From: Erysipelotrichaceae bacterium
Lineage (GTDB): Bacteria; Bacillota_I; Bacilli_A; Erysipelotrichales; Erysipelotrichaceae
Assembly (NCBI GenBank): GCA_963609745.1
Contig: CAVDLK010000001.1
Location: 1-26,974, forward strand
Reading direction: 5' to 3'
Length of the DNA stretch: 26,974 bases
The position numbers and the translations under genes were made by a program. Positions 19,054-26,974 of the stretch are shown here, in pieces. The notes under the pieces were generated by a model, which ran no database searches, was not told the origin of the DNA, and was given only the letters and a program-made list of their open reading frames with translations. The number at the start of each line of letters is the position of its first letter. Position 1 is the first letter of the stretch.

Positions 19054-19059
19054 AAGTGA

Positions 19060-19289
19060 AAAGCATAGAAAAGAAGAGTACTTTGGATTTAGGTTGTAGA
19101 GAGTTCCTGCTTGGTGAAAAGGAATACTGATGTTTAAAGGAATATGGTCTTGGAGCTGCTGTCTCGATATTAGAGATAGACGTATGCACCCGTTATAGTG
19201 CTAAGATATGATTGTATCTGATGAGGCATAGCGATATGCGAATTAAGGTGGTAACACGTTCAAAGACGTCCTTAGGGATGTCTTTTTTG
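19060..19289 (+). promoter_or_regulatory. T-box riboswitch, Met-specific
   Basis: Stem I AGTA, AGAGAG and GGTGAAA motifs; specifier ATG at 19144-19146; CCGTTA element; T-box AAGGTGGTAACACG at 19245-19258; terminator AAAGACGTCC-TTAG-GGATGTCTTT plus T tract. Confidence 0.93.
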
Positions 19290-19346
19290 TTTAAAAAACG
19301 TTTCCTTTCCTTAAGTCTAGGATACAAGAAAAGGGAGGAAAGAAAG

Positions 19347-20165
19347 ATGAAGAAGTTGTTATTAGCAGTATTAGTATTATTAGTTTTAGTAGGTTGTTCA
19401 TCAAAACAAGAAGATGACAAGACAATCAGTGTTGCTTGTTCGCCTACACCTCATGCTGAAATATTAGAAAAGGCAGCTGAGATTTTAAAGGAACAAGGTT
19501 GGACTTTAGAAATTGAAGAGTTTGAAGATTATGTTCAACCAATTGAAGTTGTTGAATCTGGTGATGTTGATGCAAACTATTTTGCGCATGTTCCTTATTT
19601 AAATAATTACAATGAAAAAAAGGGAACTCATCAAGTAGTAGTTGCTAAGGTACATTATGAACCATTTGGTATTTATCCAGGTACTTCTAATACTTTAGAT
19701 TTAAGTGATGATGTTACTAATGAAATAATTGTTCCAAATGATGGTACAAATGAAACAAGAGCATTATTATTACTTCAAGATATTGGTTTTATAACTTTAC
19801 CAAGTGATACTTCAGCAGAGAGTATTGTTACAGTTAATGATGTAGTATCTTATGAAAAGAATATTAAGATTATTGAAATGGAAGCAGCTCAAATTGCTAG
19901 AGTTAGAGATTCTGCAGCTCTAGTAGTATTAAATGGTAACTATGCATTAGCAGCTGATTTAAATGTTTCAAAAGATGCTCTAGCTTATGAAAAGGCTGAT
20001 TCTTCTGCAGCTCAAACATATGTAAATGTATTAGCTACTAAAGCTGATAATGCTGAAAATGAAGGTTTATTGGTTTTAAAGGAAGTATTAGAGTCTAAGG
20101 AAATTGCTGATTTCATTAATTCAAAATATGAGGGAGCTGTAGTGCCTTTTAACAATTATGATTAA
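19347..20165 (+). CDS. metQ: Methionine ABC transporter substrate-binding lipoprotein (MetQ/NlpA)
   Basis: SD GGGAGG precedes ATG 19347 (start moved from 19212). Lipobox LVGC, PTPHAEIL, DANYFAH.PYL and VPNDGTNETRAL. Confidence 0.93.
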   Translation: MKKLLLAVLVLLVLVGCSSKQEDDKTISVACSPTPHAEILEKAAEILKEQGWTLEIEEFEDYVQPIEVVESGDVDANYFAHVPYLNNYNEKKGTHQVVVAKVHYEPFGIYPGTSNTLDLSDDVTNEIIVPNDGTNETRALLLLQDIGFITLPSDTSAESIVTVNDVVSYEKNIKIIEMEAAQIARVRDSAALVVLNGNYALAADLNVSKDALAYEKADSSAAQTYVNVLATKADNAENEGLLVLKEVLESKEIADFINSKYEGAVVPFNNYD

Positions 20166-21162
20166 GGTTAGTAACTTATATAAAACTTACGAAACAAAGG
20201 ACAACATCGTTGAAGCATTAAACGATGTGTCTTTTGAAGTAGAAAAGGGAGAGATATTTGGCATTATCGGTTTATCAGGTGCGGGTAAATCAACATTAAT
20301 TCGTTGTTTAAATTTCTTAGAAAGACCAAATAAGGGTACTGTTGAAATTGATGGTGAGGATTTAGCTAAATTATCTAATAAGCAACTTGCTTTAAAAAGA
20401 AGAAAGATTGGTATGATATTTCAATCATTCAACTTATTAATGCAAGAAAATGTTTTAGATAATGTTTGTTTTCCAATGACAATTGCTGGAGTTAATAAAA
20501 ATGAGGCAAAAGAAAAAGCTTTGCATTATTTAGAGATAGTAGGTTTAAAAGATAAGGCTAAGGCATATCCATCGCAATTATCTGGTGGTCAAAAACAAAG
20601 AGTGGCAATTGCTAGAGTATTGGCAAGCAATCCTGAGATATTACTTTGTGATGAAGCTACAAGTGCATTAGATCCACAAACTACTAAATCCATATTGGAT
20701 TTAATAAAAGATATAAATGAAAAATATGGTATTACTGTTGTATTAATTACCCATGAAATGAGTGTTATTCAAGAAACTTGTTCACGTTGTGTAGTGTTGG
20801 AAAATGGTCGTTTGATGGAAGAAAATACCGTAGAAGAGTTATTTAGACATCCTAAGACTAATGCTGCTAGAAAATTGATTTTTAATTCTAATAAACAGAT
20901 TAAAAATATGGAAGGTGGCAGAATTATAAGAATTGCTTTTGAAGAATCTAATACATCTGAACCTGTTATTGCCAATTTAATATTAGAATTTAAGACTGCT
21001 GTTAATATTTTGGAATCTAATATTAATGATATTAATGGTAAGGCTAAGGGACAGATAATGATTCAACTTCCAAATGATGATGTTCTAGCAAATAAGATGA
21101 TTGATTATTTGCATGCAAATGAATCAATTGTAGTAGATGAGGTTAAAGATTATGGGCAATAG
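20158..21162 (+). CDS. metN: Methionine ABC transporter ATP-binding protein with C-terminal NIL domain
   Basis: GLSGAGKST, LSGGQKQR and LCDEATSALDPQTT. Confidence 0.95.
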   Translation: MIKVSNLYKTYETKDNIVEALNDVSFEVEKGEIFGIIGLSGAGKSTLIRCLNFLERPNKGTVEIDGEDLAKLSNKQLALKRRKIGMIFQSFNLLMQENVLDNVCFPMTIAGVNKNEAKEKALHYLEIVGLKDKAKAYPSQLSGGQKQRVAIARVLASNPEILLCDEATSALDPQTTKSILDLIKDINEKYGITVVLITHEMSVIQETCSRCVVLENGRLMEENTVEELFRHPKTNAARKLIFNSNKQIKNMEGGRIIRIAFEESNTSEPVIANLILEFKTAVNILESNINDINGKAKGQIMIQLPNDDVLANKMIDYLHANESIVVDEVKDYGQ

Positions 21163-21817
21163 TACAGTTGTAAATATGATTTTAGTAGGTGTTTTAGAAA
21201 CACTATTGATGGTTGTTGTTGCCACTATTTTTGGTTATTTATTTGGTTTACCACTTGGTATTTGCTTATATATAAGTGATTCAGATGGTATTAAGCCAAA
21301 TAAGGCGTTATATCGTATATTAGATTTTATTGTTAATATTGGTAGATCTATTCCATTTTTGATTCTATTAATCTTAATTATTCCTTTAACTAAATTAATA
21401 GTTGGTAAACCTTATGGTACGGTTGCAACTATTGTACCTTTAACAGTTAGTGCTATTCCTTTTATTGGTAGAATGGTTGAATCTAGTTTAAAGGAAGTTG
21501 ATAAGGGCGTTATTGAAGCTGCTGAGTCTATGGGTGCTTCAACTTTACAAATAATAGTTAAGGTATTATTAGTAGAAGCTAAACCTTCTTTAATTAATGG
21601 GGCAACTATTTGTCTAGGAACAATTTTAGGTTATAGTGCTATGGCAGGAACAGTTGGTGGCGGTGGACTTGGTGATATCGCAATCAGGTATGGTTACTAT
21701 CGTTATCAAACTGATATTATGATTATTACTGTTGTCATTATTGTTGTATTGGTACAATTATTTCAATATATTGGTAATATGTTGGCAATTAAATTAGACC
21801 ATCGTAAAAATTTATAA
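21152..21817 (+). CDS. metI: Methionine ABC transporter permease
   Basis: RSIPFLIL and YSAMAGTVGGGGLGDIAIRYGY; SD GAGG precedes ATG 21152. Confidence 0.95.
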   Translation: MGNSTVVNMILVGVLETLLMVVVATIFGYLFGLPLGICLYISDSDGIKPNKALYRILDFIVNIGRSIPFLILLILIIPLTKLIVGKPYGTVATIVPLTVSAIPFIGRMVESSLKEVDKGVIEAAESMGASTLQIIVKVLLVEAKPSLINGATICLGTILGYSAMAGTVGGGGLGDIAIRYGYYRYQTDIMIITVVIIVVLVQLFQYIGNMLAIKLDHRKNL

Positions 21818-21852: not shown

Positions 21853-21858
21853 AGTTAT

Positions 21859-21977
21859 GTCCATAAAGAGAGGTGGAGAGACAAGCTCTATGAATCCTCA
21901 GCAACCTGCTTGCAAGGTGCTAATGCTTGAATGATGGGTCTAGTAAATCATTTACCCATCAAATATGATGGGTTTTA
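21859..21977 (+). promoter_or_regulatory. SAM-I (S-box) riboswitch, compact variant without P4, with terminator
   Basis: CCAT-AAAGAG, kink-turn P2 (GGTGGAGAGACAAGCTCTATGAATCC), GCAACC...AAGGTGCTAA, pseudoknot CAAGC/GCTTG and P1 3' strand GATGGG. Terminator ACCCATCA-AATA-TGATGGGT-TTT competes with antiterminator GATGGGT/ACCCATC. Confidence 0.9.
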
Positions 21978-22005
21978 ATATTTATGGATAGAAAAGGGGA
22001 GAAAA

Positions 22006-22551
22006 ATGAATAAAAAAGTATTTTCAACAAAAACTATTGTTGCAACTGGACTTGGAGCTGCATTGTTCCTAGTTCTATTTATGTTTGTTAAGGTACCATC
22101 ACCTGTTGCTAACACAAACATTCAATTTGCTTATGGTGTATCAACATTCTTTGGTGCATTATTTGGTCCTATCTGTGGTGGCTTAGTAGCATTTGCTGGC
22201 CATGCTTTAAATGACTTCTTATCATATGGATCATGCTGGTGGTCATGGATTATTGCTTCTGGTGTTGCTGGTGTATTTGCTGGTATTCCTTACTTCAAAT
22301 CAAATATTGAAGCTGGCGAAAAACCTGGCGTTTCATTCTATATTTGGAATGTTGTTGGTCATGCTGTTGCTTGGCTATTAGTTGCTCCAGTTCTTGATAT
22401 CGTTATGTATGGCGAAGATAAGAGCTTAGTATTCTTACAAGGTATCACAGCCTTCATCGTTAATGCATTATCAAGTGTTATCGTTGGTGCAATCCTATCA
22501 ATCGCTTATTCTAAGACAAGAACTTCAAAGGGAAGCCTAGACAAAGAATAA
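22006..22551 (+). CDS. ECF transporter S component (UPF0397/MtsT-like, SAM/methionine-regulated)
   Basis: KTIVATGLGAALF, VPSPVANTNIQFAYG, FGPICG, GHALND, WWSWII and C-terminal TSKGSL; about 6 TM helices. Confidence 0.88.
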   Translation: MNKKVFSTKTIVATGLGAALFLVLFMFVKVPSPVANTNIQFAYGVSTFFGALFGPICGGLVAFAGHALNDFLSYGSCWWSWIIASGVAGVFAGIPYFKSNIEAGEKPGVSFYIWNVVGHAVAWLLVAPVLDIVMYGEDKSLVFLQGITAFIVNALSSVIVGAILSIAYSKTRTSKGSLDKE

Positions 22552-22559
22552 TTCAAATG

Positions 22560-22581
22560 AGTCGGTGAAAGCCGACTTTTT
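22560..22581 (+). terminator. Intrinsic terminator after the S component
   Basis: AGTCGGT-GAAA-GCCGACT followed by TTTT. Confidence 0.8.
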
Positions 22582-22612
22582 GTATGCTTATTTTTTGTTA
22601 TAATCTTTATGT

Positions 22613-24316
22613 ATGAAAAACATTATTGAATTTAATAATTTTAGTTTCAAATACTTTTCTCAAAAGAATCCTACTTTAAAAAATATTAATTTAAAGATTA
22701 AGCAAGGAGAAAAGATTTTAATTGCTGGTTTATCTGGTAGTGGTAAATCAACATTGGGAAATTGTATCAATGGTTTAATTCCTTTTGTATATGAGGGTGA
22801 GATAAGTGGTGAATGTATTATTGATGGTAAAAACATTCAAGAAATGTCAGTTGCTGAATTGTCTAAAACAGTTGGTACAGTCTTACAAGATACTGATGGT
22901 CAATTTGTTGGTTTAACAGTTGGTGAAGATATTGCTTTCGCAATGGAAAATGATTGTGTTTCTTATAACGAGTTACATAGTAGAGTTGATGACATTGCTT
23001 CAAAGATTGATATTGTTGATTTATTAAAAAAAGCACCAGGAGAATTATCAGGTGGACAAAAACAAAGAGTATCTTTGGCTGGTGTATTAGTTGATGATGT
23101 AAAGATATTATTATTTGATGAACCTTTGGCAAATCTAGATCCTGCTACTGGTAAGAATACTATTGAATTAATTGATGAAATTGCGAAAAGGACTTCAGCT
23201 ACAATTATTATCATTGAACATCGTTTAGAAGATGTTTTATATAAGAGTATTGATCGTATTATTTTATTTGATGATGGCAAGATAGTTAATGATTCTACTC
23301 CTGATGAACTACTTTCCACAAATAAATTAATTGAATCAGGTATAAGAGAACCACTTTATTTAAGTGCTATTAAGTTTGCTGGAGTGAAGGTAAATAAGGA
23401 TGATCATCCTGGTTATATTGATTCATTAAAATTAAATGATGATGATAAAAATAAGATAAGAAATTGGGTTTCAAATAATCGTCAAGTACCTAAGGTATAT
23501 AATGATGTAACTTTAAAATTAGAGAATTTAAATTTTAGTTATGATGGTATAAAAAATAATGTTGATGATGTTTCTTTTAATGTTAATAAGGGAGAAATGT
23601 TAGCCATTGTTGGTAAAAATGGTGCTGGTAAGTCTACTATTTCTAAATTATTGTCTGGTTTTATTCAATTAGATTCAGGAAGAATATTACTAAATGATAG
23701 AGATTTGAAGGATGATACTATCTTTGAAAGAGGACAGAAGATTGGTTTAGTATTACAAAATCCTAATCAGATGATATGCAATACAATGATTTATGATGAA
23801 GTTGCTTATGGTTTAGTCAATATGCATATTGATGAAGAGGAAATTAAAAATAGAGTTGATGAAATATTGAAAGTATGTGGTTTATATGAATTTAGAAATT
23901 GGCCAATTAGTGCTTTAAGTTATGGTCAAAAGAAAAGAGTTACTATTGCTTCTATTATTGTAATGAAACCAGATATATTGATATTAGATGAACCTACAGC
24001 TGGCCAAGATTATCATCATTATACAGAAATCATGGATTTCTTAAGTGATTTAAATAAGAAGGGATATACCATTATTATCATTACTCATGATATGCATTTG
24101 ATGTTAGAGTATTGTAATAGATGCGTTGTAATATTGGATGGTAAAAAAGTATATGATGGTTTATGTGCTGAAGTTTTAGTTGATGATGCTATTGTGAATA
24201 AGGCTAATCTAAAGAAAACATCATTATATTATCTAGCTGAACAAGTAGGCTTAGATCCAATTGATGTAACATTGTCTTACATAAATACTGAAAGAGGTAT
24301 GCGCAATGAAGATTAA
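22613..24316 (+). CDS. ECF transporter duplicated (A-A') ATPase
   Basis: Two NBDs: GLSGSGKST/LSGGQKQR/FDEPLANLD and GKNGAGKST/LSYGQKKR/LDEPTAGQD; linker GIREPLY. Confidence 0.95.
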   Translation: MKNIIEFNNFSFKYFSQKNPTLKNINLKIKQGEKILIAGLSGSGKSTLGNCINGLIPFVYEGEISGECIIDGKNIQEMSVAELSKTVGTVLQDTDGQFVGLTVGEDIAFAMENDCVSYNELHSRVDDIASKIDIVDLLKKAPGELSGGQKQRVSLAGVLVDDVKILLFDEPLANLDPATGKNTIELIDEIAKRTSATIIIIEHRLEDVLYKSIDRIILFDDGKIVNDSTPDELLSTNKLIESGIREPLYLSAIKFAGVKVNKDDHPGYIDSLKLNDDDKNKIRNWVSNNRQVPKVYNDVTLKLENLNFSYDGIKNNVDDVSFNVNKGEMLAIVGKNGAGKSTISKLLSGFIQLDSGRILLNDRDLKDDTIFERGQKIGLVLQNPNQMICNTMIYDEVAYGLVNMHIDEEEIKNRVDEILKVCGLYEFRNWPISALSYGQKKRVTIASIIVMKPDILILDEPTAGQDYHHYTEIMDFLSDLNKKGYTIIIITHDMHLMLEYCNRCVVILDGKKVYDGLCAEVLVDDAIVNKANLKKTSLYYLAEQVGLDPIDVTLSYINTERGMRNED

Positions 24317-25139
24317 ACTATTTAGTTATAATCAATTAGATACCATAATTCATAAAATGTCAGGTTCTAGTAAACTTATTTGTTTTTTATTAGTAACTAG
24401 TGCTGTTATGTTTACCTATGATCCTAGAATTATTATTGGTATTCTAATTTTTTCTTTCATTATGTTATTTGTTTCCAAGATATCTTTTAAACAAATAAGG
24501 CCAATGTTGATGTATGTCTTTGTATTTTTATTGATTAATTTTGTATTAACTTATGTTATTTCTCCTGATTATGGACCTAAGATATATGGAACTAGAACAG
24601 TATTATTAAAATTATTTGGTAGATATGATATAACACAAGAACAATTATTATATCAATGCACAAAAACATTAAAATATTTTAGTGCTATACCTTTAGGTTT
24701 TATTTTCTTTCTAACAACCAATCCTAGTGAATTTGCTTCTAGTTTAAATGGTATTGGTGTTCCTTATAAGGCATGTACAGCATTATCATTAACATTACGT
24801 TATTTCCCTGATGTTCAAGTGGATTTTAATGATGTTTCTAATGCTCAACAAGCCAGAGGCTTAGATAATTCTAAGAAGGCTAAATTTAAAGATAGGGTAG
24901 TGAATACAACAAAGATAATTATTCCTTTAATATTTTCAACATTAGATAGAGTTGAATCTATTACTAATGCCATGGAACTTAGAGGTTATGGTAAGAATAA
25001 TAAGAGAACTTGGTATTCATATAGAAAAAAGACAAAGATAGATTATATTGCGATGTTTATTTGTTTATTAATATTATTATTTTCTTTATATATGCGTTTC
25101 TTTGTGGTTAAATCGATGTATTATAACCCTTTTGCTTAG
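24306..25139 (+). CDS. ecfT: ECF transporter transmembrane T component
   Basis: TTNPSEFASSL, LTLRYFP, AQQARG and AMELRGY (X-R-X motifs). Confidence 0.95.
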   Translation: MKIKLFSYNQLDTIIHKMSGSSKLICFLLVTSAVMFTYDPRIIIGILIFSFIMLFVSKISFKQIRPMLMYVFVFLLINFVLTYVISPDYGPKIYGTRTVLLKLFGRYDITQEQLLYQCTKTLKYFSAIPLGFIFFLTTNPSEFASSLNGIGVPYKACTALSLTLRYFPDVQVDFNDVSNAQQARGLDNSKKAKFKDRVVNTTKIIIPLIFSTLDRVESITNAMELRGYGKNNKRTWYSYRKKTKIDYIAMFICLLILLFSLYMRFFVVKSMYYNPFA

Positions 25140-25146
25140 GAGGAGT

Positions 25147-25989
25147 ATGAAAAAGTTATTAGTATTTCAAAGTGATTGGACATATGCTGAAGGTGCTGTT
25201 GCATCTACTTATGGTGTAATTAAAAGTGTTGATAGTGATATTGATATAATTACTGCTACTCATGAGATTCCGCAATTTGATATCTATAGTGCATCTTATC
25301 GTTTATATCAATATATGGATTTTTGGCCAAAAGGTACAATATTTGTTTCTGTAGTTGACCCAGGGGTTGGTACTTCTAGAAAAGCTTGTGTAGCCAAAAC
25401 TAAAAATGGTTATTATCTTGTTACTCCTGATAATGGTACTTTAACTCATATTGATAAATATTTTGGTATTGAAGAGGTAAGAGTAATAGATGAAAAAATA
25501 AATCGTTTGCATCGCTTAGATAATAATTTTGTTTCTATATTCCATGGCCGTGATTTATTTGGCTATTGTGCTGCTAGACTTGCTTCAAATATTATCACTT
25601 ATGAAGAAGTTGGTCCTAAATATGATATTAGTGAAATTGTTAGATTACCAATATTGGAAGCTAGAATTAATGGTGATTATATTGAGGGTATTTTTGAAAT
25701 TAATGATCCTAATTTTGGTAATATGTGGACTAATATACCTTTAGATATGTTTAATGAATTTGGTTTTAAGCATGGTGATCTTATTCATACCTTAATATAT
25801 AAAAAGGATGAATTGCTTTATGATTTACAGTTACCTTATTATGATTCTTTCTGTAAGGCTAAAGATTATTCAGTAATGATATATAACAATGAGTTAAATA
25901 AGATTGCTTTAGCTAAGGTACTTGGTAATCTATGTAAAGATTATAATTTAAGTTATGGTAGTGATTATAGAGTTATTTTTAAGAGGTGA
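25147..25989 (+). CDS. DUF62 SAM hydroxide adenosyltransferase family protein (divergent paralogue 1)
   Basis: SD AGGAGG precedes ATG 25147 (start moved from 25102). VSVVDPGVGTSRK, TPDNGTL and FHGRDLF. Confidence 0.92.
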   Translation: MKKLLVFQSDWTYAEGAVASTYGVIKSVDSDIDIITATHEIPQFDIYSASYRLYQYMDFWPKGTIFVSVVDPGVGTSRKACVAKTKNGYYLVTPDNGTLTHIDKYFGIEEVRVIDEKINRLHRLDNNFVSIFHGRDLFGYCAARLASNIITYEEVGPKYDISEIVRLPILEARINGDYIEGIFEINDPNFGNMWTNIPLDMFNEFGFKHGDLIHTLIYKKDELLYDLQLPYYDSFCKAKDYSVMIYNNELNKIALAKVLGNLCKDYNLSYGSDYRVIFKR

Positions 25990-25991
25990 GT

Positions 25992-26828
25992 ATGAATAAG
26001 TTATTAGTATTTCAATCAGATTTTGGTTTAGATGATGCAGCTATTAGTGCTATGGAAGGTGTTTCTTTTACTGTATGTAAAGATTTAAACATCAGACATT
26101 TAACTCATAATATTCCTCAATATAATACTTTTGATGCTTCATATAGACTATATCAAGCAATTAGTTATTGGCCTGAAGGCACAGTATTTGTTTCTATTGT
26201 TGATCCAGGAGTAGGAACAAGTAGAAAATCAGTTGTCGCAAAAACAAAGACTGGTCAATATATTGTTACTCCTGATAATGGTACTTTAACTCATATAGGT
26301 AAGTTTATTGGTATTGATGAAGTAAGGGAAATAGATGAAGCAGTAAATAGATTAAAGAATTCTGAAAAATCATATACTTTCCATGGTAGAGATGTATATG
26401 CTTATACTGCCGCCAAACTTGCTTCAGGATTAATTAGTTTTGAAGAAGTAGGACCTAAAGTTGATGATTATTGTAGTTTACCTTTATATGGTTATCATGA
26501 AATTGAAAATGGTCTTGAAGGTCAAGTTGACATTTTAGATGTAAGATATGGTTCTTTATGGACATCTATACCATATAAGGCTTTTAAAGAATGTGGCTTT
26601 GAATTTGGTGATAAATTATTAGTAGAAATTTTTAATAATGAAACAAAAGTATATAGTGGTATTATGTCTTATTGCAAGTCTTTTGCGGATGTAAGTATTA
26701 ATCAATCGCTAATTTATATGAATTCTACTAACCAGATGGCAATTGCCATAAATCAAAATTCGTTTGCGAAAGTATATGGAATTGGTGTAGGTAAGGGTTG
26801 GATTATTAAACTAACAAGAAATATCTAA
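25992..26828 (+). CDS. DUF62 SAM hydroxide adenosyltransferase (SAM-dependent chlorinase/fluorinase family), paralogue 2
   Basis: QSDFGLDD, VDPGVGTSRK, TPDNGTL, TFHGRDVY and LDVRYGSLWT. Confidence 0.95.
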   Translation: MNKLLVFQSDFGLDDAAISAMEGVSFTVCKDLNIRHLTHNIPQYNTFDASYRLYQAISYWPEGTVFVSIVDPGVGTSRKSVVAKTKTGQYIVTPDNGTLTHIGKFIGIDEVREIDEAVNRLKNSEKSYTFHGRDVYAYTAAKLASGLISFEEVGPKVDDYCSLPLYGYHEIENGLEGQVDILDVRYGSLWTSIPYKAFKECGFEFGDKLLVEIFNNETKVYSGIMSYCKSFADVSINQSLIYMNSTNQMAIAINQNSFAKVYGIGVGKGWIIKLTRNI

Positions 26829-26891
26829 AAGATTATAGTTATAATGTAATATTTTTTTGTAAATTTAACCTGTGTGATTTAGGAGTTAATT

Positions 26892-26974
26892 TTCAGTAAC
26901 CCACCACTAAAGTAGTGGGATTGTGACCAAGGTTGCAATTTTGCTGAATAGCCTCAGTTTCTTGTCTTGCCAAA
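26892..26974 (+). ncRNA. 5' end of a HEARO/omega-RNA scaffold (IS200/IS605 IscB/IsrB-type element end), truncated by the window
   Basis: TTCAGTA (26892-98) pairs with TGCTGAA (26942-48), enclosing CCCACCAC-TAAA-GTAGTGGG and ATTGTGAC-CAAG-GTTGCAAT, and is followed by TAGCCTCAG. This is the same layout as the GTCAA.ACCC..CTAAAG..GGG...TTGAC.AGCCT.AG start of omega-RNAs. Confidence 0.7.

Follow-up and report, generated by a model that had tools for sequence, protein, structure and literature searches.

What is the structured segment that closes the window, the 26,974-nt stretch of DNA analysed here, and why does it stand directly behind a Shine–Dalgarno (SD) motif with no start codon? The original prediction, made from the letters, held that an IscB omega-RNA (HEARO) element had inserted between a host ribosome-binding site (RBS) and its ATG. 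The contig's last 83 nt are indeed the 5′ guide-RNA end of an IscB/omega-RNA transposon, a known element type, and the evidence supports 26892–26974 as the right end, in the convention of Meers 2023 (bioRxiv 10.1101/2023.03.14.532601), of an ISC (IscB) element of the IS200/IS605 superfamily. The best explanation of the locus as a whole, which we hold with considerable confidence, is an ISC/IscB omega end behind a host SD, likely inserted at the ATGA start of the next gene. Both the element family and its N|ATGA target are already published. The window is an entire contig (C1) of a 1.16-Mb assembly (G000; 147 contigs, 76% complete, 30% GC), and the features on which the argument draws are the following.

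21858–21940, SAM (S-box) riboswitch, found in the Rfam scan of the window.
25986–26828, + strand, gene of the SAM hydroxide adenosyltransferase family (Pfam PF01887/PF20257), co-oriented with the omega RNA.
26832–26858, + strand, weak hairpin with a T7 run, containing TATAAT (−1.5 kcal/mol, z 0.0) and aligned to a stronger hairpin in the sister species G022.
26872–26891, + strand, host flank GTGTGATTTAGGAGTTAATT holding the orphaned RBS, the predicted guide segment by its position 5′ of the scaffold and the guide origin described in Meers 2023.
26881–26885, + strand, host SD AGGAG, 6 nt before the insertion point, in a 15-nt context identical to the leader of a G022 MFS transporter gene, with a 6-nt spacer (anti-SD duplex −6.8 vs −7.3 kcal/mol).
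26892–26974, + strand, 5′ 83 nt of the omega-RNA/HEARO scaffold, cut by the contig end (Rfam RF02033, positions 1–73 of 211).
26892–26948, + strand, three-way junction in which P1 (TTCAGTA/TGCTGAA) closes two hairpins (fold z −3.41; compensated pairs in 26 ends).
26900–26919, strand unassigned, subterminal imperfect palindrome CCCACCACTAAAGTAGTGGG, from sequence and fold.

The motifs named in the original prediction lie where it placed them (AGGAG at 26881–85, TTAATT at 26886–91, TTCAGTA from 26892 and TATAAT at 26840–45), and RNAfold returns the three-way junction that it described (26892–26948, −20.2 kcal/mol), with one C·A mismatch in the second hairpin. Only 1 of 200 shuffles is equally stable, and the longer segment 26893–26974 reaches a z of −1.12 because its tail is cut by the contig end. 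The covariance search that had been proposed as a check does match 26892–26974 to HEARO (RF02033, 3′ truncated, 29.4 bits, E 1.5e-4), though below the model's gathering score of 83 bits; the match is absent from the whole-window scan at the gathering cut-off, and a HEARO search of the whole G000 assembly gave 0 matches, not returning even this truncated end. Compared with the model, the window has its first and fifth P1 pairs swapped (U-A and G-C), carries a longer third hairpin and stops before the 3′ two-thirds.

The unusual TTCAG start, for which a matching 3′ strand had been pointed out, proves to be a compensated variant of the common GTCAA. Among 26 aligned 5′ ends, which were chosen by hand, no row loses any of the six P1 pairs. 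The first pair is U-A in 12, G-C in 11, G-U in two and A-U in one, the fifth is A-U in 13 and G-C in 13, and the two change together between the TTCAG and GTCAA types, with the proviso that related rows are not independent. The TTCAG-start subfamily is a natural compensated variant of transposon end and scaffold alike.

Thirteen loci with the same 5′ end were collected, two by an exact 27-nt search of a genome collection, ten by a degenerate 34-nt search of metagenomes and one by a search of relatives. In all 13, similarity sets in exactly at TTCAG, and none of the 5′ flanks is related to that of the window. The relatives bear out TTCAG as the start of the element, which begins at 26892, not 26852, so that the window contains just 83 nt of it. 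This sharp boundary with variable flanks, together with the absence of the element from the orthologous site in G022, marks the segment as mobile. Of 12 TTCAG-start loci scanned, nine score above the HEARO gathering cut-off, relatives reaching 104–152 bits. The nearest complete copy (L026, 1,644 bp; HEARO 136.2 bits) is identical to the window end at 75 of 83 nt (90%), the differences lying mostly in one hairpin tip. It encodes a 431-aa IscB (NF040563, 337 bits against a cut-off of 175; RRXRR present), and its far end reads ...TGATTTTT (...CCCTGCCTGATTTTT), followed directly by ATGAA. Together with the HEARO match and the element-free G022 allele, these complete relatives support the IscB omega-RNA identity.

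Nine of the 13 loci contain iscB sequence, near full length in three (L026, L119, L028) and running to the contig end in one (L120); the gene is internally deleted in L027 and L123, interrupted in L121 and L125 and unmatched in L126 and L127, and the sequence of L124 and L128 stops too soon. The interruption in L121 and L125 is unrelated AT-rich coding DNA after residue 115, about 590 nt into the element. In L126 and L127, another short palindromic element cuts into the TTCAG-start end after about 70 nt, and past this break L127 has a far end and the ATGA of a long ORF, without iscB. A mini element of about 380 nt (L123:2501–2885) consists of an omega 5′ end, a remnant of the iscB C-terminus and a far end, and stands before an ATGA. 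Elsewhere in the family, three spaced, partial omega-RNA-like repeats stand 5′ of iscB in an array-like arrangement (L103:1350–2350).

The original prediction had also proposed looking for iscB or isrB. Profile searches of the 76%-complete G000 assembly found no IscB, RRXRR or NF040563 match, nor a Y1 transposase (Y1_Tnp), and a search with the L026 element found nothing past the window's 83 nt. Two explanations compete. The contig was likely broken inside the repeat, which would also account for the missing iscB. Alternatively, the window copy may itself be defective or protein-less (internally deleted, interrupted or PATE-like), providing at most a guide RNA with IscB supplied from elsewhere, or being inert; this would change its activity and leave its identity the same. 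We give this second reading somewhat less than an even chance, weighing the several damaged or iscB-free copies among the 13 loci and the lack of iscB in the assembly against an 83-nt end that keeps every P1 pair and departs from the intact L026 mostly in a hairpin tip.

The orthologous locus of the sister species G022 matches window positions 25986–26855 at 93% over 870 nt and, in the empty-site comparison that had been proposed, carries no element. There, TGTGTGATTTAGGAG-AGAGTT-ATGAGT opens a 384-aa MFS transporter gene, and the window counterpart reads TGTGTGATTTAGGAG-TTAATT-TTCAG. The distance from SD to junction in the window equals that from SD to ATG in G022, whose next four bases are the family target. 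Against this stands that the empty allele belongs to another species, that four of the six spacer positions differ and that the window lacks 16 nt of the gap. This element-free allele and the complete relatives support the proposed insertion between a host RBS and its ATG: the element end sits behind a host SD motif, was likely inserted directly 5′ of the next gene's ATGA start, and that gene is probably of the G022 MFS type. Behind the orthologous gene, no omega end was found at E ≤ 0.1 in the 25 relative loci scanned.

The identity of the displaced gene is inferred from one genome, G022: the gene behind the adenosyltransferase pair varies among relatives, being an MFS gene only in G022 among 24 loci, and the MFS gene was not found in the 76%-complete G000 assembly. 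The gene beyond the element could instead be another one, or the site rearranged at the element, or the junction a metagenomic mis-join, an alternative that we consider fairly improbable. Apart from the missing MFS gene and the variable downstream genes, this alternative draws on the sole far-end-like hairpin of G000 (C45:7–40, family HMM E 0.015), which is followed by ATAAA and not ATGA; what speaks against it is full identity with the G022 MFS leader over 15 nt, SD included, at the same SD spacing. That C45 end was rejected as the far end of the window's element, its next bases being ATAAA and non-coding sequence, and no ATGA-adjoining far end was found in the 76%-complete assembly. C45:1–60 (L268) opens with a far-end-type IS200/IS605 hairpin that is like the window's at 18 of 20 nt, and is likely a second element at another assembly break, perhaps of the TnpB type. 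A scan with the C45 end gave 0 matches, and a search for its family reached two other genomes, one match being an IscB right end and the other a hairpin after a gene. When the leader plus ATG was sought in a genome collection, 120 stretches from unrelated taxa matched, and these were taken as chance.

That a host cis-regulatory RNA or terminator should resemble HEARO by chance, as the sub-threshold score and the three genuine leader RNAs in the window (Rfam scan) might suggest, is very improbable and already contradicted by the near-identical ends joined to iscB in unrelated flanks at the 13 loci and by their absence at the orthologous G022 site.

The promoter assigned to TATAAT at 26840–45 fares less well. 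The motif lies within a hairpin and T-run (ATTATAG-TTATAA-TGTAAT-T7) that aligns to a terminator-like hairpin of G022 (L002:2344–2373, −8.4 kcal/mol, z −3.45), and the promoter consensus scan gives it no −35 partner; the motif appears to sit in a decayed terminator-like hairpin, and the promoter claim is doubtful. G022's own TATAAT is located in the stretch absent from the window. The same scan found five sites in 375 nt vs 2.1 ± 1.5 by chance, one of them CTAACA-17-TATAGT (26811–39). Read-through from the upstream S-box/ECF operon, whose last gene is the one at 25986–26828, would be no less plausible than a local promoter as the origin of the omega RNA. In the one pair compared, the terminator-like hairpin has decayed in the genome with the element but is strong in the sister without it, a difference that could favour read-through into the omega RNA.

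How the element would work can be outlined from published systems. ISC elements have subterminal hairpins for a trans-acting Y1 transposase, and some insert at N|ATGA without duplication, according to the consulted portion of Kapitonov 2016 (PMC4810608). Meers 2023 (bioRxiv 10.1101/2023.03.14.532601) places the omega RNA of IscB elements at the right end, with a guide taken from the outside flank and a need for outside transcription; when IscB cuts the excised site, the element is restored, and the GstIscB TAM is TTCAT, i.e., ATGAA on the window strand. On the model of these two sources, the palindrome at 26900–26919 is likely the binding hairpin of the Y1 transposase (TnpA) at the DNA level. 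A Y1 transposase acting in trans would have pasted the element at N|ATGA without duplication, as is established for the family. Host-side transcription would then yield one RNA comprising a 16–20-nt leader guide, the scaffold and iscB, a step established for IscB elements and extended here by analogy. IscB with this RNA would cut any allele in which the leader again adjoins ATGA, and repair would bring the element back, as established for ISGst5; this step would require IscB from the window copy or from another copy. Start codons would be frequent landing or survival sites, given an ATGA target, transcription in the right direction and no broken reading frame. As to self-targeting, the predicted guide has no full match followed by ATG[AG] elsewhere in G000; its best site, a 10-nt seed within a long ORF, is not deemed a target.

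While similar to two published systems, the window element differs from each. Like the ISC2-type non-autonomous transposons ISC1-1_MA, ISC2-1_HM and ISC2-1_MS, which have the N|ATGA target (Kapitonov, Makarova, Koonin 2016, PMC4810608, as far as that source was covered), it would have inserted 5′ of ATGA without duplication, and its nearest complete copy L026 has an IscB gene without TnpA and subterminal hairpins. In contrast, its 5′ terminus is TTCAG, whereas theirs is GTCA. Its host, at 30% GC and with T-box and S-box leaders, is of the low-GC Bacillota type; the N|ATGA entries in the covered part of PMC4810608 are cyanobacterial and proteobacterial. Like ISGst5/GstIscB of Geobacillus stearothermophilus (10.1101/2023.03.14.532601, covered sections), it has a right-end omega RNA, a predicted outside guide and a co-oriented upstream gene, and ATGAA, in keeping with the GstIscB TAM TTCAT, is found at 47 of 66 family ends. 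Activity was demonstrated for ISGst5, whereas the window copy is known from sequence alone. Orientation bias is described in the Meers preprint, and no RBS or start-codon analysis was found in its covered sections; the main text of PMC4810608 never uses "start codon". The literature searched yielded no paper on IscB elements parked at start codons or providing a replacement RBS, and Weinberg 2009 and Altae-Tran 2021 may cover it.

The family-wide question worth pursuing is why IscB elements so often occupy start codons and whether expression of the displaced gene survives. The sample comprised 102 loci, of which 96 matched IscB, 90 were distinct and 70 had the far-end motif. An ATG lies 9–18 nt behind this motif in 66 of the 70, under a rule that itself seeks ATG, and the target after the far end is ATGA in 62 of the 66. 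Both ends were called in 44 loci, two of which were dropped for short flanks, leaving 42 sites. At 24 of these, the target opens an ORF of at least 100 codons without a long frame upstream; in 18 of these 24, an SD (≤ −5 kcal/mol) precedes the omega end as well. This coincidence of start and SD, counted over a sample in which several loci come from one genome, compares, under an identical rule, with 53 of 1529 flanking ATGA (3.5%) and 325 of 16520 ATGA in G000 (2%). When the control is limited to ATGA that break no ORF, it rises to 53/319 (17%, p 2.5e-4), and when also restricted to the same strand, to 45/202 (22%, p 0.011), so that survival and orientation explain much of the start-codon excess. 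By appearance, at most seven of the 42 sites are in-gene insertions. To the eye, L027 also sits at a start codon, but the rule did not pick it up and it is left out of the counts. Pfam matches occur in 18 of the 24 downstream ORFs, ten of them beginning within 11 residues. Among the start codons occupied by IscB elements are those of genes for RNase P protein (L042:3812) and D-Ala-D-Ala ligase (L058:2721), both of which are usually essential.

A tentative idea, which we hold to be less likely than not, is that IscB elements of this clade may swap RBSs with the host: the host SD becomes part of the guide and the far end gives the displaced gene a replacement SD bridged by a hairpin, with the iscB stop codon of many copies falling on or beside the host ATG as a further aid. 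The candidate SD, GAAAGGAG, lies about 54 nt before the ATG linearly and would lie about 10 nt away once the hairpin folds. In 47 of 66 far ends, a purine core, mostly of this sequence, falls within a fixed 20-nt window ahead of the terminal hairpin, compared with a mean of 10.8% and a maximum of 28.8% in 38 control windows of the iscB body; L026 has a weaker AAGGAA form. Folded as RNA, the core-to-ATG DNA forms one outer stem and leaves a median of 10 unpaired nt (5–13 in 40/47). Where the tract codes for Glu-Arg, 34 of 41 cases use AGG for Arg, vs 315 of 2308 in the gene body, and several copies whose iscB stopped earlier retain the tract. By eye, five loci (L049, L052, L076, L093, L094) have lost the hairpin and carry the purine tract about 6–17 nt before the ATG. 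As raw counts without a null, the iscB stop falls within −12 to +1 of the target in 31 of 65 loci and overlaps it as ATGA in 11.

Several results weigh against a bridged SD. The core is missing from the fixed window in 19 of 66 far ends, the tract can also pair with a TTCCTCC arm, the terminal hairpin is already explained by transposition, and the far-end DNA is absent from the window. An SD at canonical linear spacing occurs inside the far end in three of 66. The best-of-window SD energy of the far end is no different from that of iscB coding DNA (56 vs 59 of 66 at ≤ −7 kcal/mol), and fixed position alone distinguishes the purine tract from coding DNA. If the swap were real, start codons would be safe harbours, those of essential genes like rnpA included, at which elements obtain outside transcription for the guide without silencing the displaced gene, a translation-level counterpart of the self-splicing IStron.

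The host neighbourhood has features of its own. From 21858 to 26828, the S-box riboswitch leads an ECF transporter (S, ATPase and T components) and two tandem SAM hydroxide adenosyltransferase genes, a pair found repeatedly across the genus. A T-box leader stands 5′ of a MetQ/MetN/MetI-like ABC transporter (19057–21817). At 1074–2530, directly 5′ of an L10 leader, rplJ-rplL and rpoB-rpoC, an AbiEii-domain gene (1901–2530) is preceded by an unassigned 213-aa ORF, the two likely forming a type IV toxin–antitoxin pair.
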